Positions 41,060-59,456 are shown, counted from the stretch's first letter. The stretch is 64,000 bases of DNA from Actinomycetales bacterium (GCA_045807245.1 JBJMHS010000061.1:3054-67053), one strand, 5' to 3'. Notes: a model not told the origin generated them from the sequence alone. Numbers and translations are program-made.

Positions 41060-41061
41060 CC

Positions 41062-41868
41062 GTGCCTGCCGCGGGGGTCATGGGTTCGCCGATCGCTCAC
41101 TCGCTCTCGCCGGCCCTGCATCTCGCGGCGTACCGCAGCCTCGGCCTGCCCTGGACGTACGTCGCCCGCGAGGTCGACGAGGCGGCGTTGCCCGAGGCGC
41201 TGGCCGGGTTGGGCCCGGACTGGGTGGGGGTCTCACTGACGATGCCGCTGAAGCAGGCCGTGCTGCCGCTGCTCGACGAGGTCAGCGACCTGGCCCGGGA
41301 CGTGGGTGCCGTCAACACGGTGACGTTCGGGCCCGGCGCCTGGCGGTCCGGGGACAACACCGACGTGTACGGGATCACGGCTGCCCTGCGGGCCGCTGGG
41401 GTCGAGGATGGCCGGGGGGCGGTCGTCCTCGGGGGCGGCGCCACCGCCGCATCCGCGGTGGCCGCGCTGCGCGAGCTGGGTGAGCAGACCGCGACGCTCG
41501 TGGTCCGGTCCCGCGAGCGGGCGAGGGGTGTCGAGGCGGCGGCCGAGCGGCTCGGGGTGCGCGTCCGGCTGGCGTCGTGGGACCAGGCCGGCCCGCTGGC
41601 GGCCTGCGCACCCGTCGTGGTCAGCACCGTGCCACCGGGTGCCGCGGACCGGATCCGGCTCAACGTGTCGACGGCCGGGGTGCTGCTGGACGTGGTCTAC
41701 CGCCCGTGGCCGACCGCCCTGGCCGGCGCCTGGCAGCGCGCGGGTGGGGTCGCCGTACCCGGTCTGGAGATGTTGGTGCACCAGGCGGCCGCCCAGGTGA
41801 GGGCCTGGACGGGCGAATGGCCCGATCTGCAGCAAATGATGCGTGCCGCCCAGGCTCAGACCGCCTGA
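41062..41868 (+). CDS. aroE: Shikimate dehydrogenase
   Basis: GSPIAHSLSPALHLAAY, GVSLTMPLK, VNTV...GDNTD and the GGGATAASAV Rossmann motif. GTG at 41062 within the longer ORF. Confidence 0.85.
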   Translation: MPAAGVMGSPIAHSLSPALHLAAYRSLGLPWTYVAREVDEAALPEALAGLGPDWVGVSLTMPLKQAVLPLLDEVSDLARDVGAVNTVTFGPGAWRSGDNTDVYGITAALRAAGVEDGRGAVVLGGGATAASAVAALRELGEQTATLVVRSRERARGVEAAAERLGVRVRLASWDQAGPLAACAPVVVSTVPPGAADRIRLNVSTAGVLLDVVYRPWPTALAGAWQRAGGVAVPGLEMLVHQAAAQVRAWTGEWPDLQQMMRAAQAQTA

Positions 41869-42001
41869 GCGACGGAACGTTGGCAAAGGCTCGTCAAGCC
41901 GGGCGGGCAACGCGCCGATAGGCCATTTGGTGGTCCCCTCCCCGCGTCGCCATGGCGTGGAGGTCAGTCGTGGGACCTGGGGCGGGAGGGGCCAGCAAGC
42001 C

Positions 42002-43660
42002 ATGCAGCTGAGCGACATCTTGCTGAACGACGGCCTCGTCAACGAGACCCAGCTCGCTGCTGCCTACGACGAGCACCAGAAGGACGGCCGCAGCCTCGGA
42101 CGGGTGCTGGTCGACCAGGGCGTGCTGTCGGAGTCGCAGCTGGTCGCGGCTCTGGCCCAGCAGGTCGGTCTGCCGTTCGTCGACCTGACCGAGTACAACG
42201 TCGACGGCTCGGCCATCGGGCGGGTCCCCGGCGGCGTCTGCCGCCGGCACGTGGCCCTGCCGATCGCCTACGAGGACGGCCGCCTGCTCGTGGCGATGGC
42301 CGACCCGGGCAACGTCTTCGCCCTCGACGACTTCCGGTCCATCACCGGCATGGACGTCCGTCCGGTCGTTGCGACCAAGGGCGACGTCCTGGCCGCCATC
42401 GACCGCTACTACCGCGCCGACGCGGACATGGACGACATCACCAGCGCGATGGAGGTCGAGGAGGACGACGACCTCTCCAACGTCCGCGAGGTGGTCGAGG
42501 ACGCCCCGATCGTCAAGTACGTGAACCTGCTCATCACCCAGGCCATCCAGGACCGCGCGTCCGACATCCACATCGAGCCGACCGAGCACGACCTGCGCGT
42601 GCGCTACCGCATCGACGGTGTGCTGCACGAGGTCATGCGCTCGCCGCGTGCGATCCAGTCCGGTGTCACGTCCCGCCTGAAGATCATGGCCGACATCAAC
42701 ATCGCCGAGCGCCGCATCCCCCAGGACGGCCGGCTCTCGGTGAACGCGCACGGCAAGAAGATCGACCTCCGCGTGGCCACGTTGCCGACGGTGTGGGGCG
42801 AGAAGGTCGTCATGCGTGTCCTCGACAACTCGACGGCACGGCTCAGCCTGGACGACCTCGGCTTCGGCGCTTCGAACTACACGCGCTACTCGAAGAGCTT
42901 CACCAAGCCCTACGGGATGATGCTCGTCACGGGCCCGACCGGGTCGGGCAAGTCGACCACGCTGTACGCCACGCTGAACATCGTCAGCAAGCCCGAGGTC
43001 AACGTCATCACGGTCGAGGACCCGGTCGAGTACCGCCTGCCCGGCATCAACCAGGTGCAGACGAACACCAAGGCCGGCCTCACCTTCGCCTCGGCGCTGC
43101 GCTCGATCCTGCGGTCCGACCCCGACGTCGTCCTGATCGGTGAGATCCGTGACCACGAGACGGCACAGATCGCCGTCGAGGCCGCGCTCACCGGTCACCT
43201 CGTGCTCTCCACGCTGCACACCAACGACGCCCCGAGCTCCATCACCCGGCTGACCGAGATGGGCATCGAGCCCTTCCTCGTCGGCTCCGCGCTCGACTGC
43301 GTGCTGGCCCAGCGCCTCACCCGCCGCCTGTGCGACAAGTGCAAGGAGGCCTACCAGCCGGACGCGGAGCTGCTCGAACGGGTGGGTTACCCCTGGACGC
43401 CGGCCGACCAGATCCCCACCCTCTTCCGCGCGGTGGGATGCTCCGCCTGCTCCAAGACGGGCTACAAGGGCCGGATCGCTCTGCACGAGGTCATGGAAGT
43501 GACCGAGGAGATCGAGCGGCTCACCGTCGAGCGCGCCTCGGCGGCGGCCATCGGTGAGATCGCCCGGGCCCAGGGCATGCTCACCCTGCGCCAGGACGGC
43601 ATGTCCAAGGTCGGACAGGGCGTCACCTCCATCGAAGAGATCCTGCGCGTCGTCGTCTGA
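42002..43660 (+). CDS. pilB: Type IV pilus assembly ATPase PilB (GspE family)
   Basis: T2SSE_N-type N-domain, Walker A VTGPTGSGKSTT, Asp box, Walker B VLIGEIRD, His box STLHTNDA, tetracysteine CDKC...CSAC. Confidence 0.92.
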   Translation: MQLSDILLNDGLVNETQLAAAYDEHQKDGRSLGRVLVDQGVLSESQLVAALAQQVGLPFVDLTEYNVDGSAIGRVPGGVCRRHVALPIAYEDGRLLVAMADPGNVFALDDFRSITGMDVRPVVATKGDVLAAIDRYYRADADMDDITSAMEVEEDDDLSNVREVVEDAPIVKYVNLLITQAIQDRASDIHIEPTEHDLRVRYRIDGVLHEVMRSPRAIQSGVTSRLKIMADINIAERRIPQDGRLSVNAHGKKIDLRVATLPTVWGEKVVMRVLDNSTARLSLDDLGFGASNYTRYSKSFTKPYGMMLVTGPTGSGKSTTLYATLNIVSKPEVNVITVEDPVEYRLPGINQVQTNTKAGLTFASALRSILRSDPDVVLIGEIRDHETAQIAVEAALTGHLVLSTLHTNDAPSSITRLTEMGIEPFLVGSALDCVLAQRLTRRLCDKCKEAYQPDAELLERVGYPWTPADQIPTLFRAVGCSACSKTGYKGRIALHEVMEVTEEIERLTVERASAAAIGEIARAQGMLTLRQDGMSKVGQGVTSIEEILRVVV

Positions 43661-43821: not shown

Positions 43822-45081
43822 GTGGACAGCTACGGCCAGTCGAACGGCGCGTACGTGCCCGACAACTACGCGTACACCGCCGACTCGAGCGCAGCGTCCG
43901 CACGGGTGCCGCACCAGGCGGGACCGGCGACCAGCGTGGCCATCGACGAGGACGACATGGACATGGCCGGCGCGTCGTACCGCCGGGCCAGCACGGAGCG
44001 GCGGGCCGAGGTCGGCGACCTGAACCTGCACGACCTGCTGATCACCGTGCTCGACCGCAAGGCGTCCGACCTGCACCTCACCGCTGGCGCACTGCCGACG
44101 CTGCGGATCAACGGCGAGCTCGTCCCGATGGAGGACTTCGAGCCGCTGAGCCCGGCCGAGCTGCAGCGCGTGCTGTTCGCGGCGCTCACCCAGAAGCAGC
44201 GCGAGCGCTTCGAGGCCGAGCTCGAGCTGGACCTGAGCTACTCGGTGCCGGGCAAGGCTCGGTTCCGGGTCAACGTGTACCGCCAGCGTGAGGCGATCGG
44301 GGCGGCCTTCCGCCTGATCCCTTACGAGATCAAGCCACTCGACGCCCTCGGCATCCCGCCGGCGGTCAAGAACTTCTCCGGCCTGCCGCGTGGCCTGGTC
44401 CTCGTGACCGGTCCGACCGGTTCCGGCAAGTCGACGACGCTGGCCGGCCTGATCGACCTGGCCAACCGCACCCGGCACGACCACATCATGACCGTCGAGG
44501 ACCCGATCGAGTTCCTGCACCGCCACAAGTCCTGCCTGGTCAACCAGCGCGAGGTCGGCGAGGACACGCACTCGTTCGCGGCCGCGCTCAAGCACGTGCT
44601 GCGCCAGGACCCGGACATCATCCTGGTCGGTGAGATGCGAGACCTGGAGACGATCTCGGTGGCCCTGACCGCGGCCGAGACCGGCCACCTGGTCTTCGCC
44701 ACCCTGCACACGCAGGACGCCGCCCAGACCATCGACCGCGTCATCGACGTCTTCCCGGCCGAGCAGCAGGAGCAGGTGCGCGCGCAGCTCGCCGGCGCCG
44801 TCCAGGGCGTCGTCTGCCAGACGCTGTGCAAGACGGCCGACGGCAAGGGCCGGGTCGTCGCCACCGAGGTGCTGGTCGCGACGCCGGGCGTCCGCAACCT
44901 GATCCGCGAGGGCAAGACGCACCAGATCTACTCGGCGATGCAGGCCGGCGCCCAGCACGGCATGCACACGCTGGACCAGCACCTCGCCGAGCTGGTCCGC
45001 ACCAACCAGATCACGTACGAACACGGTCTGGAGAAGTGCCACCACGTCGAGGACTTCAACCGCCTGCTCGGCCGGATCTAG
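43822..45081 (+). CDS. pilT: Type IV pilus retraction ATPase PilT
   Basis: ASDLHLTAG, Walker A VTGPTGSGKSTT, ILVGEMRD, FATLHT and the PilT signature PGVRNLIREGK. The GTG 43822 start (SD GAGGGGA) gives a ~66-aa N-terminal extension. Internal ATGs offer a shorter alternative. Confidence 0.92.
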   Translation: MDSYGQSNGAYVPDNYAYTADSSAASARVPHQAGPATSVAIDEDDMDMAGASYRRASTERRAEVGDLNLHDLLITVLDRKASDLHLTAGALPTLRINGELVPMEDFEPLSPAELQRVLFAALTQKQRERFEAELELDLSYSVPGKARFRVNVYRQREAIGAAFRLIPYEIKPLDALGIPPAVKNFSGLPRGLVLVTGPTGSGKSTTLAGLIDLANRTRHDHIMTVEDPIEFLHRHKSCLVNQREVGEDTHSFAAALKHVLRQDPDIILVGEMRDLETISVALTAAETGHLVFATLHTQDAAQTIDRVIDVFPAEQQEQVRAQLAGAVQGVVCQTLCKTADGKGRVVATEVLVATPGVRNLIREGKTHQIYSAMQAGAQHGMHTLDQHLAELVRTNQITYEHGLEKCHHVEDFNRLLGRI

Positions 45082-45105
45082 CCGGACCTAAGAGGAGCTC
45101 CAGCC

Positions 45106-46326
45106 ATGACCATGACGAAGTACGAGTACGCGGTCCGCGACAAGTCCGGCAAGCTCGTCAAGGGCACGCTCGACGCCGAGAACCAGGGCCAGGTCGTCGC
45201 CAAGCTGCGCACGATGGGCTTCGCGCCCGTCAGCATCAGCGAGACGAACTCCGGGATGAAGAAGGAGATCACGATCCCCGGCTTCAGCAACCGGGTGAAG
45301 CTGAAGGACCTGGCGATCATGTCCCGCCAGTTCGCGACCATGATCTCCTCCGGCCTGTCCCTCCTGCGAGCGCTGACCATCCTCGCCGAGCAGACCGAGA
45401 ACAAGGAGCTGGCGCGCGTCCTCGGGCTGGTCCGCTCGGACGTCGAGGCCGGGCAGTCGCTCTCCTCGGCCCTCGCCAAGTTCCCCAAGGTCTTCCCCCC
45501 GCTCATGGTCAACATGTGCCGGGCCGGTGAGGTCGGTGGCTTCCTCGACGGCGTGCTGCTGCAGATCGCGGAGAACTACGAGGCCGAGGTCAAGCTGCGC
45601 GGCAAGATCAAGTCGGCGATGACCTATCCCACCGTGGTGTTCTGCATTGCGATCGTCGCGGTCATCGGCATGCTGCTGTTCATCGTCCCGGTGTTCGCCA
45701 AGATGTTCAAAGACCTGGGCGGTACCTTGCCGGCGCCGACGCGGGTCCTGGTCGAGCTCAGCGCGATCGTGAAGTACGGCTTCCCGTTCATGCTGGTGGG
45801 CGTCATCGCGCTGTTCATCACCTGGCAGCGGGTCAAGCACAAGGACGCTGTCCGGGCGGTCTTCGACCCGTTGAAGCTCAAGGTCCCGGTGTTCGGCAAC
45901 CTGTTCCAGAAGGTCGCGCTGAGCCGGTTCAGCCGCAACCTGGGCACGATGCTTCGTTCCGGCGTACCGATCCTGCAGTCGCTGGACATCGTCGCTTCGA
46001 CCACGGCGAACGTCGTTCTCGAGCGTGCGGTACGCGACGTCCAGGAGAGCGTACGGCGCGGCGAGTCGCTCGCGGGGCCGCTGGCTCAGCACAAGGTGTT
46101 CCCGCCCATGGTCGTCCAGATGCTCGCCATCGGCGAGGACACAGGAGCCATGGACACGATGCTCGAGAAGATCGCCGAGTTCTACGACCAAGAGGTGGAG
46201 GCCACGACCGAGGCGCTGACCAGCCTGATCGAGCCGCTCATGATCGCGGTCCTCGGCAGCATCATCGGGTCGATGATCATCGCCCTCTACATGCCGATCT
46301 TCAAGGTCTTCGACCTCATCAAGTAG
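45106..46326 (+). CDS. pilC: Type IV pilus platform protein PilC (GspF family)
   Basis: 406 aa with two T2SSF repeats (FSRQFATMISSGLSLLRAL; FSRNLGTMLRSGVPILQSL) and 3 TM segments. Confidence 0.92.
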   Translation: MTMTKYEYAVRDKSGKLVKGTLDAENQGQVVAKLRTMGFAPVSISETNSGMKKEITIPGFSNRVKLKDLAIMSRQFATMISSGLSLLRALTILAEQTENKELARVLGLVRSDVEAGQSLSSALAKFPKVFPPLMVNMCRAGEVGGFLDGVLLQIAENYEAEVKLRGKIKSAMTYPTVVFCIAIVAVIGMLLFIVPVFAKMFKDLGGTLPAPTRVLVELSAIVKYGFPFMLVGVIALFITWQRVKHKDAVRAVFDPLKLKVPVFGNLFQKVALSRFSRNLGTMLRSGVPILQSLDIVASTTANVVLERAVRDVQESVRRGESLAGPLAQHKVFPPMVVQMLAIGEDTGAMDTMLEKIAEFYDQEVEATTEALTSLIEPLMIAVLGSIIGSMIIALYMPIFKVFDLIK

Positions 46327-46975: not shown

Positions 46976-46996
46976 TCTAGCGCTTGACCACTACGG

Positions 46997-47023
46997 ATGG
47001 GCGGCCCCTTGCGGGCCGCCCAT
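46997..47023 (+). terminator. Hairpin terminator/attenuator after pilin copy 1
   Basis: Perfect 11-bp stem ATGGGCGGCCC / GGGCCGCCCAT with a 5-nt loop, 22 nt after the stop. Confidence 0.6.
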
Positions 47024-47143
47024 TCGTGCGTCGTAGGCGTGCGCCGCGCGGGTGAGATGTGCCCGTGCGCCCTCAAGGTGCCGAGCGCGCAGCCGACAGA
47101 CACAGCAAGGCCTCCACTTTCCCTGAGCCATGCAGAGGACACG

Positions 47144-47572: not shown

Positions 47573-47597
47573 CCGGATCGGCGAGAGAGGAACAACC

Positions 47598-48872
47598 GTG
47601 GTCGATCGGCCGCCTCGCGCGGACGAGGGCTTCAGCATGATGGAGGTCCTCGTGGCCGCCATGATCTTCGCCCTTGCCGCGACCGTGCTCGCCGGCGTCT
47701 TCATCAAGACGCTCGGGCTGGCGCAGAGCAACACGCAGCGGACCACCGCTGCGAACCTCGCGACCCAGCAGATGGAGAAGCTGCGCGCCATGGACGCGAC
47801 GCAGATCCCCGACGGTCAGACCACGATCGGTCCGGTCACCGTCGGCGGCACGTCGTACACGCTCACGCAGTACGTCGAGCTCAAGACCCAGGACGGTACG
47901 GCGTGCGTCGGGACCGGCACGGAGCTGACGGCCAAGCAGATCACGGTGCTCGTGACCTGGCCGAACCAGGGCGCCGTGAAGCCGGTCCGCAGCGACACGA
48001 TCCGGACCCTGAACTCGACCGACGACGTGGTCACGGCGTCGAAGGGCGCGTTGGCCGTCACCGTCCAGGCTGCCGACGGCACGGGCACGGCGAGCATCCC
48101 GGTCACGCTCACCACGTCGACCGGCACCTTCGTCCAGACCCTGACGTCGGGTGTCGACGGCTGCGTCGTCTTCACCGGCCTGGCGCCGGGCAGCTACCTG
48201 GCCAACGCCAACACGATGAACTACGTCGACCAGGACGGTGACCAGTCGACGTCGAGTACGGCGCTCGGCGTTACTGCGAACACGATCGCCAAGGGCGTCT
48301 TGCCCTACGACCTGCTAGGCGGCATCGCGATCACACCTCAGACACCGGACGTGAACTACCCGGTCCCGAGCGCCGTCGGCCTCACGCTGACCACCTCGGT
48401 GTGGTCGCCCAGCCAGAACCGGCCGTACGTCACGTGCGTAGGCGCGACCGTGTCGGGTTGTGTGTCCGGGACCTCGCTTCGGAACGCCTCGTCCCTGTTC
48501 CCGGCCAAGTACGGCGCCTGGGCCGGCACCTGCTCGGACGCCGCGACACTGGCCGGCACGCCGACCCTCGCGACGGTCAAGAGCGGGAACACCACGTCGT
48601 ACACCGTGTCGAACTTCGGCCGGGCCCGCGCGGTCATCGGCCCGCTCGTCGTGGGCGGCCCGCACCTGTACGCGGTGCACGCGGCCGACGCGGTCTGCCC
48701 GTCAGGTGAGATCTACGACCTCGGCACGGTCACGGCCGGCCAGACGGTCAACACCGCGCTGCCGTGGGGAACCTGGCGCCTGCAGCTGACCACCACGGGC
48801 GTCCCCACAACGCAGACGGTGAGCCTGTCCAGCGGCGTCTCGTCGCCGCAGACGGTGACGGTGCTCCTATGA
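47598..48872 (+). CDS. Large minor pilin, PilV-like N-domain with C-terminal beta-sandwich extensions
   Basis: Prepilin motif ADEG/FSMMEVLVAAMIFALA (Glu5), then TAANLATQQMEKLRA. A carboxypeptidase-regulatory-like segment VTVQAADGTGTASIPVTL...GCVVFTGLAPGSY follows. ~424 aa. GTG at 47598. Confidence 0.75.
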   Translation: MVDRPPRADEGFSMMEVLVAAMIFALAATVLAGVFIKTLGLAQSNTQRTTAANLATQQMEKLRAMDATQIPDGQTTIGPVTVGGTSYTLTQYVELKTQDGTACVGTGTELTAKQITVLVTWPNQGAVKPVRSDTIRTLNSTDDVVTASKGALAVTVQAADGTGTASIPVTLTTSTGTFVQTLTSGVDGCVVFTGLAPGSYLANANTMNYVDQDGDQSTSSTALGVTANTIAKGVLPYDLLGGIAITPQTPDVNYPVPSAVGLTLTTSVWSPSQNRPYVTCVGATVSGCVSGTSLRNASSLFPAKYGAWAGTCSDAATLAGTPTLATVKSGNTTSYTVSNFGRARAVIGPLVVGGPHLYAVHAADAVCPSGEIYDLGTVTAGQTVNTALPWGTWRLQLTTTGVPTTQTVSLSSGVSSPQTVTVLL

Positions 48873-49561
48873 CCCGCCTGCACTCGGCTCTCCGGCGTGT
48901 CCGGGCCGGTCACGGCTCTCCGGACTCGGGTATGAGCCTCATGGAACTCATCATCGCGATGGCGGTGGCCTCGATCGTGCTGCTCGGTGTCGGCACGTTG
49001 TTCGTCAGCAGCCTTCGTCAGAACCGCACGGTGATGGCGAAGACGACGACCACGGCCGACGCCCGCATCGGCATGGAGGCGATGACGCGTGACCTCCGCG
49101 TCGCGGTCGTTCCCTCGGGTGGCACCAGCCCGTTCAACTCGCCTGTGGGCACACCGGTCAGCTCCTCGCGGATCAGCGTGTACAGCAGCCTGGGTGCCGT
49201 CACGGGCACCACGGACCCGCAGCCGACGCTGGTGACGTTCTACTACGACTCGACGAAGAAGTGCCTGGTCCGGGAGCTGACGCCGTCCAGCGGCTCTCTT
49301 ACGTGGACCTGCATCGCTCGCGGGACCATCAACGCCAGCGGCGACGCGCTCTTCACGTACTACCCCCTTGCGGCGGACGGAACCGTGAGCACCACGCCGT
49401 ACGCCCCCTCGGCCATCACCAGCAACCTCCCGACGATTGCGAGCGTCGCCATCAACCTCCAGGTCAACGACCCCGCCAACCCCTCGGTGCTGCCGACCAA
49501 GCTCCAGGACCAGGTTTCCATGATCAATATCGTCACCGCGCTGCAGGCAGGTGTGTCGTGA
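48869..49561 (+). CDS. Minor pilin, PilW-like
   Basis: Prepilin motif PDSG/MSLMELIIAMAVASIVLLGV (Glu5), then ADARIGMEAMTRDLRVA. ATGA overlap with the upstream stop. Confidence 0.7.
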   Translation: MTRLHSALRRVRAGHGSPDSGMSLMELIIAMAVASIVLLGVGTLFVSSLRQNRTVMAKTTTTADARIGMEAMTRDLRVAVVPSGGTSPFNSPVGTPVSSSRISVYSSLGAVTGTTDPQPTLVTFYYDSTKKCLVRELTPSSGSLTWTCIARGTINASGDALFTYYPLAADGTVSTTPYAPSAITSNLPTIASVAINLQVNDPANPSVLPTKLQDQVSMINIVTALQAGVS

Positions 49562-51159
49562 GAGCTCTCCGCCCGTTCCGGCTCGGTTCCGGCGCTGATG
49601 ACGAGGGCATGGTCCTCGTCGGCGTCATGGGCGCGATGATGGTGCTGTCCGCGTTCGCGCTGGCGACGCTGGGCTACGCGCTGCAGAACTCGCAGCCGAA
49701 CCGCAAGGACCAGGACGCCAAGGCGGCCGTGGCCGCTGCCCAGGCAGGCATCGACGACTACCTGTCGCGGCTCAACAGCGACCCGAGCTACTACACGTTC
49801 ACCGACTCGACCAACGTTGCGTTCACCAGCGGCAAGCCGGCATCCGGCACGGTCGGCCAGGGCGCGACGTTCAAGTACTCAGTCCTGAGCAGCGTCGCCA
49901 CGACGGTGTCGCAGGGCTACATCCGGATCAAGTCCACCGGAACGATGAACGGCGTGACGCGCACCTTGAGCGCGCGGCTGAACCCCAACGGGTTCCTGCA
50001 GTACATCTACCACACGGACAAGGAGGACCAGGACCCCGTCCTGTACTCCGGCGGCAGCGCCACCATCGAGGCGAAGTGCAACCAGTACTACTACTACAGC
50101 TCGGCCACCAAGCCAGGCCGCAGCTCGTACTCGCCGGACCCGTGTCGCGAGATCCAGTTCACGACCGGCGACACGATCAACGGCCCGATGCACACCAACG
50201 ACGCCATGCAGATCAACGGCTCGATCCTCTTTACGAGCCCGAAGACCGAGACTAGCTGGGTCACGGCACAGACCAACAAGTGGTGGGGCTCCGGCACGCC
50301 GAGCACCTCGGGCTACAAGCCGGTCTACGCGGCGCCGGTGCAGATCCCACCGTCGAACGCCAGCCTGCTGGCGAACGCGACGACCGCCGGCTGCGTGTAC
50401 TCGGGAGCCAGCAAGATCACCTTCACCAGCGATGGCAAGATGACGGTGCTCAGCCCGAACACCACGGCGTCGTCGACCTGCTACCCCGCTGGCGCCAACA
50501 AGGCCACCCCAGTCGTCGGGATCACCATCCCACCCGTGATGTACGTGCAGGACTTCAGCGGCACGTGCGCGAAGAACAGCAGCGGCGTGACCATCACGCT
50601 CGGCTACCCGCTCTCGGGCGAGCTTCCGACGACGGACGCGAGCTACACCGGTCCCGACTACTCGTGCAACAAGGGGACCGCGTACGTCTCTGGCACGCTG
50701 AACGGGACGTCGACCATCGGCTCGGCTCAGGACATCGTGGTGGTCAGCAACCTCCTGTACAACGACAAGTCGACGACCAGCGACGACCTGCTCGGCCTGG
50801 TCCCGACCCACTTCATGTGGATCTACCACCCGGTGAACACGAGCGACGCGAACATGCTGAGCACCCCGGTCACGGAGGTCGACGCCGCCATCCTCGCCGT
50901 GTCGGACAGCTTCATCGTCCAGAACTACAACCTCGGAGCGCCCATCTCGTCCGGGTCGACGAACAAGCTCACGGTGTTCGGTGCGATCGCGCAGAACTAC
51001 CGGGGTCCGGTGGGCACCGGTACGACGACCGCGGCCTCGACGGGCTACCTGAAGAACTACAACTACGACACCCGGTTCGCGCGCGGCGCCCAGCCGCCGT
51101 ACTTCCTGCAGCCCGTGTCCACGCAGTGGACCGCCGGCCAGATCAGCGACGGCAACTGA
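49558..51159 (+). CDS. Large PilX_N-like pilus-associated protein (no Glu5)
   Basis: GTGA overlap upstream. N-terminus DDEGMVLVGVMGAMMVLSAFALATLG has Gly at +5. The ~533-aa Ser/Thr/Asn-rich body includes GDTINGPMHTNDAMQINGS. Confidence 0.6.
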   Translation: MRALRPFRLGSGADDEGMVLVGVMGAMMVLSAFALATLGYALQNSQPNRKDQDAKAAVAAAQAGIDDYLSRLNSDPSYYTFTDSTNVAFTSGKPASGTVGQGATFKYSVLSSVATTVSQGYIRIKSTGTMNGVTRTLSARLNPNGFLQYIYHTDKEDQDPVLYSGGSATIEAKCNQYYYYSSATKPGRSSYSPDPCREIQFTTGDTINGPMHTNDAMQINGSILFTSPKTETSWVTAQTNKWWGSGTPSTSGYKPVYAAPVQIPPSNASLLANATTAGCVYSGASKITFTSDGKMTVLSPNTTASSTCYPAGANKATPVVGITIPPVMYVQDFSGTCAKNSSGVTITLGYPLSGELPTTDASYTGPDYSCNKGTAYVSGTLNGTSTIGSAQDIVVVSNLLYNDKSTTSDDLLGLVPTHFMWIYHPVNTSDANMLSTPVTEVDAAILAVSDSFIVQNYNLGAPISSGSTNKLTVFGAIAQNYRGPVGTGTTTAASTGYLKNYNYDTRFARGAQPPYFLQPVSTQWTAGQISDGN

Positions 51160-51207
51160 GCCGCGGGCTCACGCACTGTCAACTCGCACTGACCTAGGCT
51201 GACCGGA

Positions 51208-51987
51208 ATGTGGCTCGTGACGGTGTTCTGCGCCGTCGTCGGGCTGGCGATCGGCTCGTTCCTCAACGTCGTCATCTGGCGCGTGCCGAGGGACGAGTCC
51301 GTCGTCCGGCCGCGGAGCCACTGCCCGTCCTGTGGCAACCCGGTGCGCCCGTACGACGACATCCCGGTCGTCAGCTGGCTCGTGCTGAGGGGCCGCTGTC
51401 GCGACTGCGGCCAGCCGATCAGCATCCGCTACCCGCTCGTCGAAGCCGGGACGGCGGTCCTGTTCGGCGTGACCGCCTGGCATTTCGGGCTGTCGTGGGA
51501 GCTGCCGGCGTACCTCTACCTGATCGCGATAGGCGTCGCCCTCGCGCTCATCGACATCGACGTCCACCGCTTGCCCAACGCGATCGTGCTGCCGTCGTAC
51601 GTGGTCGCACCCGTCCTGCTCACCGTGGCGTCACTGGGTGACGGCGACTGGGCAGCCTTGGTACGAGCCGCGATCGGCGGCGCAGCACTCTACGTCCTGT
51701 ACTTCCTGCTCCGCCTGGCCTACCCGAGCGGCATGGGGTTCGGCGACGTAAAGCTGGCCGGCGTGCTCGGGATGTACCTGGGGTGGCTCGGGTGGGGGCC
51801 GCTCGCCGTAGGAGCCTTCCTCGGGTTCCTGCTCGGCGGCGTCGTCGGTGGTGCGCTGATGGCAGCCAACCGCGCCAGCCGGAAGTCGAAGATCCCGTTC
51901 GGTCCGTTCATGATCGCCGGCGCCTATGTCGCCGTGCTCGTGGGCGCGCAGATCAGCGACCTCTATCTCGACCTGTTCGTGGGCTGA
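51208..51987 (+). CDS. pilD: Prepilin peptidase (A24 family) PilD
   Basis: CPSCGNPV...CRDCGQPI zinc motif, catalytic Asp motifs LIDIDVHRLP and GFGDVKL, multiple TM segments. Confidence 0.93.
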   Translation: MWLVTVFCAVVGLAIGSFLNVVIWRVPRDESVVRPRSHCPSCGNPVRPYDDIPVVSWLVLRGRCRDCGQPISIRYPLVEAGTAVLFGVTAWHFGLSWELPAYLYLIAIGVALALIDIDVHRLPNAIVLPSYVVAPVLLTVASLGDGDWAALVRAAIGGAALYVLYFLLRLAYPSGMGFGDVKLAGVLGMYLGWLGWGPLAVGAFLGFLLGGVVGGALMAANRASRKSKIPFGPFMIAGAYVAVLVGAQISDLYLDLFVG

Positions 51988-52141
51988 ACCGGGGATGTCG
52001 CCCGGCCCGCACACCCGTTCGGCCTAGTCAACGGGCCAATCCGAGCGGTTGTCCTCAAGACCCTTGGGACAGGCACCGATCACCCCTTTGACGCAGCCCT
52101 GCCTGGGCTTTGCGAAGTGTCTTCGCGGAAGGGGATACGAC

Positions 52142-53194
52142 GTGGCTGGACGCACTGCCATCGGTCTCGACATCGGGACCTCCGGCGTTCGCGCGGCCGA
52201 GCTGTCGTTCGGCAAGGGTGGTGTCACTCTCGAGAGGTTCGGCCAGATCGCCGTGCCCGAGGGGGCAGTCCGGGACGGCGAGGTCATCGACACGGCGGCG
52301 GTCGCGCACGCGATCAAGCAGCTGTGGTCGCACACCCGCTTCTCGCACAAGAACGTCATCATGGGCGTGGCCAACCAGCGAGTGATCGTCCGGCAGGTCG
52401 ACCTCCCGTGGATGCCGATCGCCGAGCTGAAGGAGTCCCTGCCCTTCCAGGTCCAGGACTTCCTGCCGATGCCGGTCGACCAGACGCTGCTCGACTTCCA
52501 CCCGCTCGAGGAGGTCCAGGGCGCCGGCGGCGCGCGGCTGCTGAGGGGTCTGCTGGTCGCTGCGGCTCGGGAGATGGTCCTGTCGAACGTCCGCGCGGTC
52601 GAGCAGGCCGGTCTCAAGCCGACGATGGTCGACCTGACGTCGTTCGCGGTCCTGCGGTCGGTGGCCAACATCGGCGTCGTCGACAACGAGATCGAGGCGC
52701 TCGTCGACATCGGCGCGCGCGTGACGAACATCGTCGTGCACAGTGGCGGCGTCCCACACTTCGTCCGGATCCTGCTCATGGGCGGCCAGGACGTCACCGA
52801 CGCGGTGGCGAACAACCTGGGTGTCTCGCACGAAGAGGCCGAGGCGCTCAAGCACGAGCTCGGCAGCGGCTCGCACTCCGACAGCGCCGCTGCGGCCGGC
52901 CGGGTGGCCGACGTCACCGCGGCGACGCTCGTGGACGAGATCCGCGGCTCACTCGACTACTACATGTCCTCGACACCGCACGGTCCCGTCCAGCGGGTCG
53001 TCCTGACCGGCGGTGGCTCACGCCTCCGTGGCCTGGTCGACCGCATGGCCGCGTCCACGCGCGTGCCGGTTGTCGTCGGCGACCCGCTGGGGTCGCTGCA
53101 CCTGGGTCGCACCGGTCTGACGGATGACCAGGTCCGCCATGTCCAGCACCTCGCCGCAGTGCCGGTGGGTCTCGCGCTAGGAGCCTCTTCATGA
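52142..53194 (+). CDS. pilM: Type IV pilus assembly protein PilM (actin-like ATPase fold)
   Basis: IGLDIGTSGVRAAEL...VIMGVANQRVIVRQVDLP...DIGARVTNIVVH...VVLTGGGSRLRGL. GTG at 52142 with SD GGAAGGGGA. Confidence 0.9.
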   Translation: MAGRTAIGLDIGTSGVRAAELSFGKGGVTLERFGQIAVPEGAVRDGEVIDTAAVAHAIKQLWSHTRFSHKNVIMGVANQRVIVRQVDLPWMPIAELKESLPFQVQDFLPMPVDQTLLDFHPLEEVQGAGGARLLRGLLVAAAREMVLSNVRAVEQAGLKPTMVDLTSFAVLRSVANIGVVDNEIEALVDIGARVTNIVVHSGGVPHFVRILLMGGQDVTDAVANNLGVSHEEAEALKHELGSGSHSDSAAAAGRVADVTAATLVDEIRGSLDYYMSSTPHGPVQRVVLTGGGSRLRGLVDRMAASTRVPVVVGDPLGSLHLGRTGLTDDQVRHVQHLAAVPVGLALGASS

Positions 53195-53865
53195 GCCGCA
53201 CGAGTGTCGACTCCGTCGAGTCGCTCGCGACCGGTCGGGCAACGCTGCCCCGGGTCAACCTCCTGCCCCCCGAGGTCCACCAGGCGCGTCAGCTGCGTCG
53301 TCTCCAGGCCGGTCTGGGAGTCGGTGTCGCGGCCGTGGCGCTCGCCGTCGGCGGTTTCTACTTCCTGCAGACGCAGGCTGCCGGCGACGCGCAGGAGAGC
53401 CTGAACCAGGTGGCGGCCAAGGGCTCGACGCTCACCGCGCAGAAGGCGCAGTACGCGCAGGTGCCGAGGACACTGTCCGCGATCGAGGCGGCCGAGTCGG
53501 CCCGGCAGAACGCCATGGCGAACGACGTGCAGTGGTACCGGTACCTCAACGACCTGAGCTACGTCACGCCGAAGAACGCGTGGTTCCTCACGGTGGACAT
53601 CTCGCTGAACCAGTCCGGCGTGGTCAACGTGAACCCGGTGGCCCACGCGTCCATCGCCACGGTCACCGTCACGGGCGCTGCCAAGGTGCACAACGACGTC
53701 GCCTCGTGGTTGAACTCCGCGTCCAAGGAGTCCGGCTGGACGGACGCGTACTTCACCAACTCACAGAAGCAAGACATGAACGGTGAGACCTTCGTCCAGT
53801 TCAGCAGCACCGCGAACGTGACGGACGACGCTCTCTCCCACCGCTACGACCGGAAGGCCGGCTGA
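53191..53865 (+). CDS. pilN: Type IV pilus assembly protein PilN
   Basis: VNLLPPEV motif, one TM segment and a coiled coil. ATGA overlap with the pilM stop. Confidence 0.8.
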   Translation: MSRTSVDSVESLATGRATLPRVNLLPPEVHQARQLRRLQAGLGVGVAAVALAVGGFYFLQTQAAGDAQESLNQVAAKGSTLTAQKAQYAQVPRTLSAIEAAESARQNAMANDVQWYRYLNDLSYVTPKNAWFLTVDISLNQSGVVNVNPVAHASIATVTVTGAAKVHNDVASWLNSASKESGWTDAYFTNSQKQDMNGETFVQFSSTANVTDDALSHRYDRKAG

Positions 53866-53866
53866 C

Positions 53867-54553
53867 ATGTCCAACACCCGACCCTGGATCTTGGGCGCTG
53901 CTGCGCTGAGCGTCCTCTTGGCGGTCGCGGGCTGGTTCCTGCTGATCTCTCCGGAGCGCAGCAAGGCGGCCGACCTCAAGAGCCAGCGCACCGCGCAGGT
54001 CGCCCAGAACCAGCAGCTGCAGCTCGACATCGCGCAGCTGAAGGCCCAGAACGAGAGCCTGCCGGCCAAGCAGGCTGAGCTGGCCAAGATCAAGCAGCAG
54101 CTGCCGAGCAACCCGGCCCTGCCGGCCTTCATCCGCGGTCTGACCTCGATCGCGGGCCAGTCGGGCGCCGGCCTCACCTCGGTGTCCCCGGGCCAGCCCA
54201 TCTCGCTCGCCGCTCAGTCCACTGCTGCCGGTGCGGCGGCAGCGCCGGCCGGTCTGGTGGCGCTCCCTGTCACGGTCGTCGTGGACGGCAGCTACGCGCA
54301 GAGCGAGCTGTTCCTGCAGAAGCTCCAGACGGCGATGACGCGGGCCTTCCTCGTCCAGAAGCTGTCCATCGCAGCGCTCGACACGGGGTCGCTGTCCAAC
54401 AGCACGCCCCCCACGCCGTCCGGCAACCTGCTCCGCACCACGATCAGCGGACAGATCTTCGTGTTGCAGGACCAGGCCGCCGCTGTGAGCGGCGCAGCCG
54501 GTGCGGCGGGAACGCCGTCGGGCACCACCACGACCACCGCACCGGCGAGCTGA
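53867..54553 (+). CDS. pilO: Type IV pilus assembly protein PilO
   Basis: N-terminal TM segment, coiled coil (QLQLDIAQLKAQNESLPAKQAELAKIKQQL), and a C-terminal ferredoxin-like segment VTVVVDGSYAQSELFLQKLQ. Confidence 0.75.
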   Translation: MSNTRPWILGAAALSVLLAVAGWFLLISPERSKAADLKSQRTAQVAQNQQLQLDIAQLKAQNESLPAKQAELAKIKQQLPSNPALPAFIRGLTSIAGQSGAGLTSVSPGQPISLAAQSTAAGAAAAPAGLVALPVTVVVDGSYAQSELFLQKLQTAMTRAFLVQKLSIAALDTGSLSNSTPPTPSGNLLRTTISGQIFVLQDQAAAVSGAAGAAGTPSGTTTTTAPAS

Positions 54554-54564
54554 AGGGCTGACCG

Positions 54565-55239
54565 ATGAGCATCATGAGCGGAACCACACAGACGGCGCCG
54601 GCGCCCCCGGCCCCTCCGGTCGATGAGCCGAAGTCGGCTGCCAACGGTCGGCAGCGGCTGTACCTGCTGGTCGGCGGCGGGCTCGCCCTCGTCGTCGTCG
54701 CAGCTCTTGCGTACTTCTTCCTGCTCAGCGGGTCGGACGACGCGAACACCGGCGCGACCATCGCCCTTCCGGCGCCCAAGGCGTCGGCTAGCCCCAGCGC
54801 GTCCGCCGCGCCGGCCGCGCCGCCGCTGAAGACGTTCGCCGGCCAGACAGCCCGCAACCCGTTCAAGAGCCAGGCCCCCGTGGCCGCCGGCTCCGGCGGC
54901 ACGGGCACCTCCAGCGACGTGGCCAACTCGGGTAACACCGGCACGAGCGGCTCCACAGGCTCCGGCACCGGTACGGCGACCGCGCCGTCCGTCTCGTCCG
55001 TCCCGCTGGTCCTGACCCTGAAGAGCGTCAGTGGCACGTCGGGCGCCACCGTCTGGGTCTACAACAAGAGCACCAAGAAGACGGCGCACTACTCGCCCCA
55101 GATCGGTGACACGTTCGGCACGTACTTCCGCTTGACCGGCTTCCTCACCGACACCAGCTCGGGCGACAAGGCGGCCTTGGTCGAGTACGGCGACACGATC
55201 CTGACGCTGTTCCCGGGGACGTCCTCGACGGTGCAGTAA
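54565..55239 (+). CDS. Membrane-anchored PilP-like protein (functional assignment tentative)
   Basis: One TM segment (LYLLVGGGLALVVVAALAYFFLL), an Ala/Pro/Ser linker with ARNPF (PilP-type R-[DNS]-PF motif), a Gly/Thr/Ser tract, and a C-terminal beta segment ATVWVYNK...PQIGDTFGTYFRLTGF...ALVEYGD. It is the last gene of the pil cluster. Confidence 0.45.
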   Translation: MSIMSGTTQTAPAPPAPPVDEPKSAANGRQRLYLLVGGGLALVVVAALAYFFLLSGSDDANTGATIALPAPKASASPSASAAPAAPPLKTFAGQTARNPFKSQAPVAAGSGGTGTSSDVANSGNTGTSGSTGSGTGTATAPSVSSVPLVLTLKSVSGTSGATVWVYNKSTKKTAHYSPQIGDTFGTYFRLTGFLTDTSSGDKAALVEYGDTILTLFPGTSSTVQ

Positions 55240-55276
55240 GTCCGTAGTGAGTCCGGTCCGGGCCAGCCGGACGCAC

Positions 55277-55319
55277 AGCATGAGGCCGATCCTCCACATG
55301 GGAGGATCGGCCTCATGCT
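55277..55319 (+). other. Perfect 19-bp hairpin covering the aroC SD and start codon (possible pil-operon terminator / translational occluder)
   Basis: AGCATGAGGCCGATCCTCC - ACATG - GGAGGATCGGCCTCATGCT. The right arm contains GGAGGA and the aroC ATG (55315). A smaller hairpin GTCCGG/CCGGAC lies at 55251-55272. Confidence 0.7.
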
Positions 55320-56511
55320 TCGCTGGATCACCGCGGGCGAGTCGCACGGACCCGCGCTGGTCGCGGTGCTGGAAGGCCTCCCGGCCGACGTCGCCGTCAC
55401 GACCGACGTCGTCGCGGCAGCGCTCGCCCGTCGACGCCTCGGGTACGGCCGCGGGGCGCGGATGTCGTTCGAGCAGGACGTCGTCGAGCTGACCGGCGGG
55501 GTCCGGCACGGCCGGACGATGGGCGGCCCGGTCGCCATCAGGGTGGGCAACAGCGAGTGGCCCAAGTGGGAGCTCGTGATGAGTGCGGACCCGGTGCCGG
55601 AGGATGAGCTCGCCGACCTCGCGCGCAACGCGCCGCTGACCAGGCCACGTCCCGGTCACGCCGATCTGGTGGGGATGCAGAAGTACGGGTTCGACGACGC
55701 CCGGCCGGTGCTCGAGCGGGCCAGTGCGCGCGAGACTGCGGCACGGGTCGCCCTCGGCTCGGTCGCCTCTGCGTTCCTCGACCAGGCGTTCGGCATCCGT
55801 CTGGTCTCCCACACGGTCTCGGTGGGTTCGGCGGCCGTGGACGACGGCGCCGAGCTCCCGACGCCGGGGGACGTCGACGCGCTGGACAGGGACCCGCTCC
55901 GGGCGTTCGACGCGGCCGGCTCGGCCCGTATGGTCGAGGAGGTCGAGGCGGCCCGTCGCGACGGGGACACCTTGGGTGGTGTGGTCGAGGTGCTGGCGTA
56001 CGGCCTGCCGCCGGGTCTGGGCAGCCACGTGCACTGGGACCGGCGCCTGGACTCGCGCCTGGCGGGTGCGCTGATGGGCATCCAGGCCATCAAGGGCGTC
56101 GAGGTCGGCGACGGGTTCCGCACCGCGGCCCGGCGGGGCTCGCAGGCCCACGACGAGATCGAGCGCGGACCGGACGGGGCGCTCCGGCGCCGGTCCGGAC
56201 GCGCGGGCGGCACCGAGGGCGGCATGTCGACCGGCGACGTGCTGCGCGTCCGTGCTGCGATGAAGCCCATCTCCACCGTGCCGCGCGCGTTGGACACGGT
56301 GGACGTCACGAGCGGCGAACCGGCCAAGGCGATCAACCAGCGGTCCGACGTGTGCGCCGTACCCGCTGCGGGTGTCGTGGCCGAGGCGATGGTCGCGCTG
56401 GTGCTGGCCGACGCCTGTCTGGAGAAGTTCGGCGGCGACTCGGTGGCGGAGAGCGCTCGCAACTGCCGGACCTACCTGGAGTGCCTGCCGGAAGCGCTGA
56501 GGGCACGGTGA
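55315..56511 (+). CDS. aroC: Chorismate synthase
   Basis: [32 protein letters not shown], and the GGMSTG segment. Confidence 0.96.
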
Positions 56512-57053
56512 CGTCCGACATGCCCCGCCCCCGGGCAGTGCTCATCGGGCCGCCCGGTTCGGGCAAGTCGACCGTCGCTCGGGCGCTGGCCCGGCGGCTC
56601 GGTGTGGCGGCGCGCGACACCGACCAGGACGTCGAAGCGAGCGCACAGATGACCGTGGCGGAGATCTTCGTCGAGCAGGGTGAGCCACGGTTCCGCGAGC
56701 TGGAGCGGGAGGCGGTCCTGTCTGCCTTGGCGCAACATGACGGTGTGCTGGCCCTGGGCGGGGGAGCGGTCCTGGACCCATCGGTGCAAGCGGCTCTGTC
56801 CGGTCATCTCGTCGTCTTCCTCGACGTCGGCATCGCGGACGCCGCAGGACGGGTCGGGTTTGGGCAGCACCGACCGCTGCTCATGATGAACCCGCGCGCG
56901 CAGTGGACGGCGCTGATGGAGCAGCGCCGGCCGACGTACGAGCGGCTGGCGACGGCTCGGGTCGACACCGCGGGGCGCACCGTGAAAGAGGTGGTCGACG
57001 AGGTCGAGCAGGTGCTCGCGCGGACCGGTGCCAGGGCGGACCGGTCGCGATGA
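56508..57053 (+). CDS. aroK: Shikimate kinase
   Basis: P-loop [39 protein letters not shown] overlap with the aroC stop. Confidence 0.9.
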
Positions 57054-58126
57054 CCACGCGAATCCCGGTGGGGGCGGGCTCCTCGGCGTACGACGTGCTC
57101 GTCGGGTCGGGCGTGGAGAGTGAGCTGCCGAGCGTCCTCGGCGACGGCGTACGGCGGGTGCTGGTCGTGTGCCCGGTGGCCCTGACCCGCACGGGTATCC
57201 GTATCCGGGACCTGTTGCAGGACAACGGGTTCGAGACCTTCGTGGTCGATGTGCCGAACCGTGAGGCTGCCAAGACGCTGGGCGTCGTCGCCGAGCTCTG
57301 GACCGAGCTCGGACGGCGGGCCTTCACCCGGACCGACGCCGTCGTCGGTCTGGGTGGCGGCGCGGTGACCGACCTGGCCGGTTTCGTCGCGGCGACCTGG
57401 CTGCGCGGTGTGCCCGTCGTGCACCTGCCGACGACGCTGCTCGGCATGGTCGACGCAGCGGTCGGCGGCAAGACGGGCATCAACACCGCAGAGGGCAAGA
57501 ACCTGGTCGGCTCGTTCCATCCGCCGCGTGCGGTGCTGTGCGACCTGGACCAGCTGACCAGCCTGCCGCGGGAGGACCTCGTCGCCGGGCTGGCCGAGGT
57601 GGTCAAGTGCGGCTTCGTCGCCGACCCCGAGATCCTGGGTCTGATCGAGGCCGACCCTGGTGCTACGACGGTGGCCGGGTCGGCTCTGGTGCGCGAACTG
57701 GTCGAGCGCAGCATCCGGGTCAAAGCCGACGTCGTGACGGCCGACCTCAAGGAGTCCTCGCTGCGCGAGGTGCTCAACTACGGCCACACGTTCGGCCATG
57801 CCATCGAGCTGGTCGAGGATTTCCGGTGGCGGCACGGCGAGGCGGTCAGCGTCGGTATGGTCTACGCGGCCGAGCTGGCCCGGCTGGCCGGCCGGCTGGC
57901 GCCGGACGTCGCCGAGCGCCATCGGTCGGTGCTGAGCACCCTCGGGCTGCCCACGGCTTACCGCTCGGACCGCTGGGACCGGTTGCTCGACGCGATGCGC
58001 CGCGACAAGAAGACGCGCGGCGACATGCTGCGGTTCGTCGTCCTCGACGGCCTGGCCCGACCGGGCCGCCTCGAAGGCCCGGACGAGTCCCTGCTGCGTG
58101 AGGCCTACGCCGCCGTCTCCTCGTAG
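57050..58126 (+). CDS. aroB: 3-dehydroquinate synthase
   Basis: [61 protein letters not shown] overlap with the aroK stop. Confidence 0.95.
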
Positions 58127-58271
58127 GGCTCGCCGGCGCGCCGGCGAACACGCACAACGGGTAGGTCCGGCCCTCAGGCGAGCCCATTCCGCTCATTGCG
58201 CCTGTTTCGCCCGAGTCGGGCCTGTGGACAGCGCGCCTCAGACAGAGTTGCGAGCACGCAGACTCAGCCGC

Positions 58272-59456
58272 ATGCGAGGGCCGGAGGTTGTCGATGTGCT
58301 GCGGCGCGTCGGCGGCTGGTGCCGGGCGGGTGACCTCGTGTCGGTCTGCGGCCGGACCGCGGTCGAACATGCCATCGGCCGCAGCGAGGTGGTCCGGGTG
58401 GCGCGCGGTCGCTACGCGCTGGCCGCCCTGCCGGATCCCTGGACCAGCGCGGCGCGCCTCGGCGGGGTCGTCTCCCACACGAGCGCGGCGCGGTTCTGGC
58501 GGCTGGCCGTGATGAACAACCCGGACCAGGCGCACGTGACCCTGGCCCGAGGCCGCAGCCGGGTTGCCCCGGCGGGCGCCGTGCTGCACTGGTCGGCTCT
58601 GCTCAAGCCCGATGTGCACGCAGACCTGCCGGTGACGACCCCGCTGCGCACCGTCCTCGACTGTGCCCGGACCCTGCCGTTTCGTGAGGCCCTGGCCACT
58701 GCCGACAGCGCCCTGAGGGCGCAGGTCATCGGAGCCGACGAGCTCCGGCGCGCAACGGAGAGGCTGCGCGGGCCGGGGGCGCGCCGCGCCCGCCGGGTTG
58801 CGAGCTGGGCCGACGGACGCGCCGAGAGCGGGCTCGAGTCGATGCTGCGCGCCATCTTCCTGGACCACCGCCTCCGGTCCTTCGCACCGCAGTACGTCAT
58901 CAGGGACCAGTCCGGGTTCGTCGCCCGAGTGGACCTGGCAGACCCTGCGCGCCGCCTGGTCGCGGAGGCGGACAGCTTCGAACACCACGGCCACCGAAAC
59001 GCTCTCGTGCGGGACTGCGAGCGATACGACGAGCTCCTCGTCCGCGGCTGGGGCGTACTGCGGTTTGCCTGGGAGCACGTGATGTTCCGGCCGGAGTGGG
59101 TCGCCGCGATCGCCATGGCGGCCGTGGCCGATCGGTTGCGGGGGAACATGCGCAAGGCCGCTGACCCGGCAGTCGGCCGGGTTGGCGGCGGTTGCGCCTG
59201 TCCGGCCGCGGCGCAGGTCACGACTATCCTCGGCGGATGCGAGCCGTCCTGGTGCTCAACGGGCCGAACCTGGGCCGGCTCGGATCGCGCGAGCCCGAGG
59301 TGTACGGGACGGCGTCCTACGACGACCTGGCCGAGGCCTGCCGCACCCTGGGCGCCGAGCTGGACCTGGACGTCGACGTGCGCCAGACCGACGACGAGGC
59401 CGAGCTGGTGCGGTGGCTGCACGAGGCCGTCGACACCAACCGTGACGTCGTGCTGA
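58272..59456 (+). CDS. AbiEi-N-like / DUF559 (Vsr-like endonuclease fold) domain protein; 3' ~220 nt overlaps aroQ out of frame
   Basis: N-terminus GRSEVVRVARGRYAL...VSHTSAARFW. C-terminus RAESGLESMLRAIF...VDLADPARRLVAEADSFEHHG...YDELLVRGWGVLRFAW. The recognisable domains end near 59130, but the first in-frame stop is at 59454-59456. Confidence 0.6.
   Translation: MRGPEVVDVLRRVGGWCRAGDLVSVCGRTAVEHAIGRSEVVRVARGRYALAALPDPWTSAARLGGVVSHTSAARFWRLAVMNNPDQAHVTLARGRSRVAPAGAVLHWSALLKPDVHADLPVTTPLRTVLDCARTLPFREALATADSALRAQVIGADELRRATERLRGPGARRARRVASWADGRAESGLESMLRAIFLDHRLRSFAPQYVIRDQSGFVARVDLADPARRLVAEADSFEHHGHRNALVRDCERYDELLVRGWGVLRFAWEHVMFRPEWVAAIAMAAVADRLRGNMRKAADPAVGRVGGGCACPAAAQVTTILGGCEPSWCSTGRTWAGSDRASPRCTGRRPTTTWPRPAAPWAPSWTWTSTCARPTTRPSWCGGCTRPSTPTVTSC

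Follow-up and report, generated by a model that had tools for sequence, protein, structure and literature searches.

What is encoded at the end of an actinobacterial pil operon, in the place that pilP takes in the gene order pilMNOP, when the locus contains no secretin? The question is raised by a complete type IVa pilus locus (41.8-55.2 kb, + strand), the core pil genes of which all pass curated models, in a stretch of 64,000 nucleotides from an Actinomycetales bacterium (GCA_045807245.1, JBJMHS010000061.1:3054-67053), referred to in the following as the window. The gene in question occupies positions 54565-55239. An earlier note on this DNA, made from the sequence alone, had described its product as a PilP-like protein of a monoderm pilus locus. 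The analyses reported here favor, at a probability of roughly 0.55, the explanation that the gene codes for a membrane-anchored protein that joins the PilMNO platform of the actinobacterial type IVa pilus as its fourth subunit, an analogue of PilP, PilW, and GspC by position and function that would act independently of a secretin.

The gene in the PilP position

As the earlier note had it, the gene is the last of the pil genes, with pilM, pilN, and pilO directly upstream and aroC directly downstream:

52049..53194, + strand: pilM (PilM_2 E=4e-52, TIGR01175 E=3e-57; likely start at about 52142)
53191..53865, + strand: pilN (PF05137, 28.7 bits against a cutoff of 22.8)
53867..54553, + strand: pilO (PF04350, 28.8 bits against a cutoff of 22)
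54565..55239, + strand: gene in the PilP position, coding for a 224-amino-acid (aa) bitopic protein of an unannotated family (based on open reading frame, family search, synteny, and codon-position G + C content)
55315..56511, + strand: aroC, chorismate synthase, the first non-pil gene (TIGR00033 E=2e-122), followed by aroK and aroB

The open reading frame (ORF) on the + strand starts with an ATG 11 nt past the pilO stop codon, and a GAAGGG resembling a ribosome-binding site is located about 8 nt upstream of this ATG; the 11-nt gap contains no promoter or terminator consensus. The G + C content at third codon positions (GC3) is 0.92 over the whole gene and 0.97 in the part coding for the C-terminal domain, which matches pilN, pilO, and aroC, and is lower in the long antisense ORFs. 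The gene is real, as follows from its GC3 of 0.92, the GAAGGG, and the existence of a family of 1368 cluster representatives that is described below.

The absence of a secretin, which the earlier note had also stated, was confirmed within the sequence covered: aroC and not pilQ comes next, and Secretin domains were detected neither in the ORFs of the pil operon nor in the other large ORFs of the window, nor in the gene tables of five related loci, which extend over +/-8-10 kb.

The encoded protein is laid out as follows:

54565..54654, + strand: predicted cytoplasmic N-terminal tail, residues 1-30, ending in NGRQR, which fits the positive-inside rule
54655..54735, + strand: predicted transmembrane helix, about residues 31-57, without lipobox and without Cys (helix 28-55 in the AlphaFold2 model)
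54736..54849, + strand: Ala/Pro-rich disordered spacer, residues 58-95 (predicted local distance difference test, pLDDT, below 50; A 22% and P 17% in the family)
54850..54870, + strand: motif A-R-N-P-F-K-S, residues 96-102 (family consensus G-R-D-P-F-x-P-L)
54871..55002, + strand: Gly/Thr/Ser-rich disordered linker, residues 103-146 (AlphaFold2 disorder and family composition)
55003..55236, + strand: predicted 7-strand all-beta C-terminal domain, residues 147-224, extracytoplasmic (pLDDT 95.6; predicted template modeling score, pTM, 0.84)

All sequence details that had been pointed out before are present, namely the missing lipobox, the transmembrane helix, ARNPF at residues 96-100, IGDTFG at 180-185, and VEYGD at 206-210. 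A hydrophobic helix (about residues 31-55) indeed takes the place of the lipobox as anchor. Since Cys occurs nowhere in the protein, the lipobox Cys of PilP is missing, and the helix (residues 31-57) is of the uncleaved type with positive-inside flanks. Across the family, the 12 aa preceding the helix contain 2.5 Lys or Arg residues as compared to 0.5 after it, a positive-inside bias that indicates an N-in/C-out topology with a single transmembrane helix. In the AlphaFold2 model of the full protein, the helix at residues 28-55 is followed by disorder from residue 57 to 140 (pLDDT below 50), which includes the Ala/Pro-rich surroundings of ARNPF that had been recognized as a disordered linker, and by the C-terminal beta domain with a pLDDT of 94-97. 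When residues 141-224 were modeled alone by using an alignment of 136 sequences, seven strands with short hairpins were obtained (pLDDT 95.6, pTM 0.84), and the all-beta nature that had been ascribed to the C-terminus holds in these models for roughly the last 77 aa. The stretch between motif and domain comprises about 47 residues in the window protein and would, if extended, measure at most about 15 nm.

A large family without annotation

The family was delimited by an exhaustive profile search against cluster representatives (50% identity) with a threshold of E<=1e-3. At this threshold it comprises 1368 cluster representatives, and 570 at E<=1e-10, nearly all of which are full-length proteins of 200-250 aa. 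A word-indexed search with the full protein gave 8 matches only and was swamped by low-complexity words; a query with the C-terminal domain and the exhaustive profile search were used instead. Many database members (among P0010-P0026) are N-terminally truncated gene calls that start past the low-complexity linker, and this hides the family from word-based searches. No Pfam domain was found in the family members, and the named members that were checked are all annotated as "hypothetical protein." Searches of Pfam, NCBIfam, and PDB profiles with profiles of the full-length protein and of the C-terminal domain returned low-complexity and transmembrane noise only (kinesin linkers, FliL, GltJ, and a chitinase with E=2.4).

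Layout statistics were derived across the family, for which 136 members were aligned, and Cys residues were counted in 130 of them. The median length is 225 aa, beginning with an N-terminal tail of about 29 aa; helix and motif are spaced by about 41 residues rich in Ala and Pro, and between the motif and the domain, with which the protein ends (median tail 0 aa), lies a linker with a median length of 52 aa (T 25%, G 16%, A 15%, P 12%, S 11%). The best-conserved element is the juxtamembrane segment R-[D/N]-P-F-x-[P/A]-L, in which P99 is invariant in the 136 sequences and F100 is present in at least 90%; R-x-P-F occurs in 95 of 136 members, as RDPF in 63 and as RNPF in 30. The consensus of the C-terminal domain is L..V......A.V.VDG..Y....G..FA.YFKL.....G.C..FQYGD..F.LC.G. 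and contains two Cys (G-x-C ... L-C-x-G). Exactly these two are conserved in 76 of 130 members, and no Cys is found in 51, the window protein included. Judged from the sequences, the pair presumably forms an extracytoplasmic disulfide.

Linkage to pilO in the Actinomycetota

As an unbiased anchor, the PilM of the window and not the candidate itself was used as probe to collect related loci. With one genome per species, 80 loci were returned, the nearest PilM matches being 93-95% identical, and the 75 loci with enough sequence past pilO entered the synteny count. The loci belong to Kineosporiaceae, Kineococcus, Angustibacter, Aquipuribacter, Motilibacter, Sporichthyaceae, Cellulomonas, and many uncultured Actinomycetota. 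A gene of the same layout is located directly 3' of pilO in 67 of the 75 loci (~89%), and the co-occurrence with pilMNO in Actinomycetota that the earlier note had put forward as a check is thereby supported, although it is not universal. In 45 loci the C-terminal domain was recognized by a hidden Markov model (HMM) in an ORF ending about 2 kb after pilM. In a further 20, the ORF behind pilO codes for a transmembrane helix, R-[D/N]-[P/V/I/A]-F, and a Thr/Ser-rich linker, followed by a C-terminal region that is diverged or much longer. The remaining two genes had escaped the regular expression or contain frameshifts, and were rescued by eye.

The linkage is tight. The gap between pilO and the gene amounts to 4-24 nt in the window and in three further loci (L086, L167, L168), and the diverse metagenomic members of the family are all encoded directly downstream of pilO. 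In Kineococcus the gene follows pilO even though aroC is not adjacent to the pilMNO block, and it is therefore pilO and not the aro genes that the gene tracks.

Two side observations concern the collected loci. Those from long-read metagenome-assembled genomes (L002, L003, L004) contain frameshifts in pil genes, and their pilM, pilC, and aroC calls are split. In two Kineosporia loci from which the gene is absent (L046, L078), the last strand of PilO is preceded by a long insertion rich in Gly and Thr, which might compensate for the absent gene.

Comparison with known systems

PilP (PF04351) is the obvious reference. Both proteins are encoded right after pilO and are placed on the outer face of the cytoplasmic membrane, and both consist of an unstructured N-terminal part with R-x-P-F that is followed by a linker and, at the C-terminus, by an all-beta domain about 75 aa in size. 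PilP has a lipid anchor, whereas the present protein has a transmembrane helix, and the linkers here are much longer and rich in Thr, Gly, and Ser. Furthermore, the family occurs in monoderm Actinomycetota, and in the window neither a pilQ after the gene nor any secretin was found. The term PilP-like is justified with regard to the position after pilO, the layout, and R-x-P-F, but not with regard to a Pfam PilP match or a PilP/GspC fold, and the profile-profile comparison by hhalign discussed below is weak. Similarly, the statement that PilPs carry a conserved R-x-PF segment is correct for two of the solved PilPs, those of Pseudomonas aeruginosa (LRSPF) and Myxococcus xanthus (KRDPF), but the PilP of Neisseria meningitidis does not have the motif; a description of an RDPF motif in PilP was not found in the literature. 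The earlier note had let the R-x-PF segment make contact with PilN/PilO; in P. aeruginosa, the contact to PilNO has been attributed to a short N-terminal helix of PilP, whose unstructured N-terminal part attaches to the coiled coil of PilN and PilO beside the lipid anchor (PMC11525922). In N. meningitidis, the stability of PilN-PilO requires PilP (PMC6916266).

PilW of Thermus thermophilus occupies the pilP position without sequence similarity to PilP and has a flexible Gly/Pro-rich linker; its C-terminal domain is reported to resemble GspC's homology region (HR), and the protein to link PilMNO to the PilQ secretin of a diderm (PMC13039148). With this protein, which was compared by description only, the actinobacterial family shares the replacement of PilP after pilO, a flexible low-complexity linker to which the bridging of a wide envelope is ascribed, and a C-terminal domain of small size. 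In contrast to PilW, no HR similarity was detected here by Foldseek, and no secretin was found.

GspC of the type II secretion system (PF11356; HR domain 3OSS) likewise serves a type IV filament machine as a bitopic membrane protein of N-in topology and carries a small periplasmic beta (HR) domain. PF11356 (T2SSC) was touched by 2 of the 136 family members (E=0.13), none of which passes the threshold. GspC differs in its PDZ or coiled-coil C-terminus, since the proteins studied here end right after the beta domain. No HR domain was matched structurally, either, and the N0 domain of a secretin, with which HR pairs, was not found in the window.

The Tad (type IVc) pilus protein RcpC/CpaB has been reported to surround the type IV filament as a ring or conduit in the periplasm (PMC12307814). 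The likeness to this transmembrane-anchored protein with small beta domains is conceptual only; it belongs to another pilus class, and no SAF or RcpC/CpaB Pfam match was obtained for the present protein. RcpC/CpaB homologues also occur in monoderm actinobacterial tad loci.

A proposed fourth subunit of the PilMNO platform and the alternatives

That the protein is a PilN/PilO-bound fourth subunit is suggested by the membrane-proximal position of its conserved part and by the precedents of P. aeruginosa PilP, N. meningitidis PilP, and Thermus PilW. By analogy with the N-terminal part of diderm PilP, the transmembrane helix and the R-D-P-F segment would dock onto the PilN-PilO heterodimer and stabilize the pair. 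The Thr/Ser-rich linker, which may be O-glycosylated as Thr/Ser-rich linkers of actinobacteria often are, would carry the beta domain outwards into the wall zone, over a distance of up to roughly 15 nm. In this zone, the domain might bind a partner other than a secretin, be it its own copies in a collar round the fiber, peptidoglycan, or the pilins or minor pilins.

Several observations weigh against this interpretation. On the sequence level, neither PilP nor GspC nor any Pfam or NCBIfam family was matched significantly, and when the six-frame ORFs of the loci, 15,384 in all, were ranked with a PilP HMM, this gene was not enriched. On the structural level, both models were compared by Foldseek to 350,542 PDB chains, a set that included the PilP structures 2IVW, 2LC4, 2Y4X, 4AV2, and 3JC8. 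The best match was no better than E=0.26 with a template modeling (TM) score of 0.37, no PilP or GspC chain appeared in the top 50, and no C-terminal beta-sandwich superposable on PilP/GspC HR structures was recovered; the PilP/GspC HR fold that the earlier note had read into the C-terminal domain is thus not supported. Eight of the 75 loci are devoid of the gene and have aroC directly after pilO (L027, L032, L034, L058, L046, L048, L078 [Kineosporiaceae], and L079 [Cellulomonas]), and the gene can therefore not be indispensable for every actinobacterial type IVa pilus. Moreover, unrelated longer regions of 210-300 aa replace the C-terminal module in Kineococcus (L051, L053, L060, L062, L064, L067) and in Aquipuribacter-type loci (L044, L045, L052, L065), the latter with an apparent coiled-coil-like insertion, and only the transmembrane helix and R-[D/N/E]-[V/I/A]-F are retained. 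Because the module is swapped between lineages, the beta domain is not a constant part of the system. Streptococcus sanguinis assembles type IVa pili without any PilP. Finally, reviews describe PilP as absent from monoderm type IVa pilus systems, which is considered logical without a secretin (PMC6916266, PMC10191384).

The alternative that survives best is that of a true but highly diverged PilP homologue with PilP/GspC HR ancestry, in which a transmembrane helix would have been substituted for the lipid anchor and the secretin partner lost while the PilNO-stabilizing role was kept; we regard this as possible, though on balance doubtful. It is consistent with the identical gene position, with the matching succession of elements (an anchor, then R-x-P-F, a linker, and an all-beta domain of roughly 75 aa), and with a comparable number of strands. 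Comparison of the family with a PilP alignment by hhalign gave P=0.011-0.032, or 0.0067 with 89 PilP sequences. At a permissive maximum-accuracy (MAC) threshold the match was colinear, pairing motif with motif and beta1-beta4 with beta1-beta4, including the V-x-x-G-D turn. The observed score was rarely reached by controls (once in 120 with permuted PilP columns and 4 times in 120 with permuted 8-column blocks), but the hhalign probability was only 2-6%. The PilP profile used in this comparison was shallow (effective number of sequences, Neff, about 2.6), because a homologue search with the P. aeruginosa PilP, a metagenome scan, and a plasmid tblastn yielded only Pseudomonas-like PilPs (>=69% identity) or nothing. 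Below the thresholds, the Pfam PilP model (PF04351) touched 2 of the 136 members (best E=0.16), the NCBIfam model GspC_delta touched 16 (over the segment from the transmembrane helix to the motif, with 14.7 bits against a cutoff of 150), and pilP_fam 3. Against these hits stand the window protein itself, which is missed by the PilP model and matches no Pfam family at E<=1, and the far commoner compositional matches to GltJ (114 members) and FliL (69); the sub-threshold NCBIfam matches are likely driven by the transmembrane helix and low-complexity sequence. The missing enrichment with the PilP HMM and the Foldseek result, where all TM scores were <=0.37 for a model with a pLDDT of 95.6, also argue against homology. 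A PilP fold or shared ancestry with PilP is possible but not demonstrated.

It is also conceivable, but in our judgment unlikely, that the protein is a pilus accessory acting outside PilMNO, such as an adaptor for wall passage or peptidoglycan remodeling, a tether of the fiber or minor pilins, or a surface-sensing or regulatory element, with R-D-P-F binding a partner other than PilN or PilO. The eight loci lacking the gene, the exchange of the outer module between lineages with conservation of the helix and motif only, and the failure to detect a PilP fold would all be in line with such a role. It is more difficult to reconcile with the conserved adjacency to pilO at distances of 4-24 nt and with the location of the best-conserved part next to the membrane, where PilN and PilO sit, and Pfam detected no enzymatic or peptidoglycan-binding domain in the window protein or the family.

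A more speculative proposal, which we consider improbable as it stands, extends the platform-subunit interpretation outwards. Copies anchored at PilN/PilO would use their tethered and possibly glycosylated beta domains to build a collar or conduit within the peptidoglycan layer by which the pilus is led across the wall. If this were true, the protein would be a secretin-independent outer component of the Gram-positive type IV pilus machine, and the lineage-specific swaps of the outer module would mirror different wall architectures.

Very little speaks for a gene that is not tied to pili at all, either as a membrane protein of the aro operon or as a spurious high-GC ORF: it does lie between pilO and aroC, so that adjacency alone cannot assign it, and high-GC genomes yield many long false ORFs, but both variants are effectively refuted by the in-frame GC3 of 0.92-0.97, by the 1368 clusters with conserved motif and domain, by the synteny count, by Kineococcus, where the gene follows pilO with aroC elsewhere, and by the loci in which aroC abuts pilO and the gene is missing.

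The surrounding pilus locus

The other pil genes of the window, where the DNA is generally of high G + C content (about 70-75%), precede pilM:

41843..43660, + strand: pilB, extension ATPase (TIGR02538 E=4e-202; the likely true start is a Met at about 42002)
43822..45081, + strand: pilT, retraction ATPase (TIGR01420 E=5e-147)
45106..46326, + strand: pilC, platform protein (PilC/GspF models E=1e-129)
46529-46975 and 46997-47572, + strand: two type IV pilin genes in tandem (N_methyl motif E=1e-9 and 2e-9)
47547-48872, 48764-49561, and 49261-51159, + strand: three genes, putatively for minor pilins or tip proteins (the first two with an N_methyl motif; start codons uncertain)
51208..51987, + strand: pilD, prepilin peptidase (A24_N_bact E=2e-37, plus Peptidase_A24)

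Residues 56-107 of PilB comprise an N-terminal MshEN-type motif for binding of cyclic di-GMP (NF053729, 51 bits against a cutoff of 38), and the presence of this motif suggests that pilus extension in this actinobacterium may be under cyclic di-GMP control. One of the putative minor pilins (47547-48872) has a weak match, below the cutoff, to a prealbumin/SdrD_B-like domain of the adhesin type (E=7e-5). The minor-pilin block closes with a 632-aa ORF (49261-51159) that matches no Pfam family and might code for a tip adhesin.

The pil locus is embedded in an aro operon, with mltG and aroE upstream and aroC, aroK, and aroB downstream, the whole arrangement covering positions 39920-58126. Between positions 42001 and 54000 it has a G + C content of 0.655-0.684 and a negative GC skew, as compared to 0.70-0.75 in the flanking regions; the amino-acid composition of pilins rich in Thr, Ser, and Asn or a horizontal origin might account for this. 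The placement mltG-aroE-[pilB...pilO-X]-aroC-aroK-aroB, where X denotes the gene behind pilO, is found also in L001-L004, L086, and most of L005-L084, and this synteny is conserved in Kineosporiaceae, Sporichthyaceae, Motilibacter, and many uncultured Actinomycetota. Past aroB, the related loci contain aroQ, efp, nusB, a bldD-like gene, and pyrR. An ORF just 3' of aroB in the window (58098-59456) appears to code for a DUF559-like C-terminus of the endonuclease type; L001 and L002 have an ORF between aroB and aroQ with weak or faint DUF559 matches.

Implications

The lack of PilP in monoderms, accounted for by PilP being no more than the connection to the secretin, has been used to argue that PilMNO is an assembly complex and not an alignment complex (PMC6916266), and no description of an actinobacterial PilP-like protein was found in the literature. 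What is new here is a large unannotated family in monoderms that is tightly linked to pilO and has the layout of PilP; no new mechanism is demonstrated. Defining this family would improve the annotation of actinobacterial pil loci. The finding is moderately surprising to specialists and directly testable, and the R-D-P-F segment offers a concrete target for mutagenesis. In view of a conserved protein that is built like PilP and encoded at the PilP position in actinobacterial operons, the picture that monoderms lack PilP would need qualification. The protein would represent either a PilNO-bound fourth subunit with a secretin-independent role, for which the stabilization of PilNO in N. meningitidis provides a hint, or an outward-reaching component of Gram-positive bacteria for crossing the thick wall.
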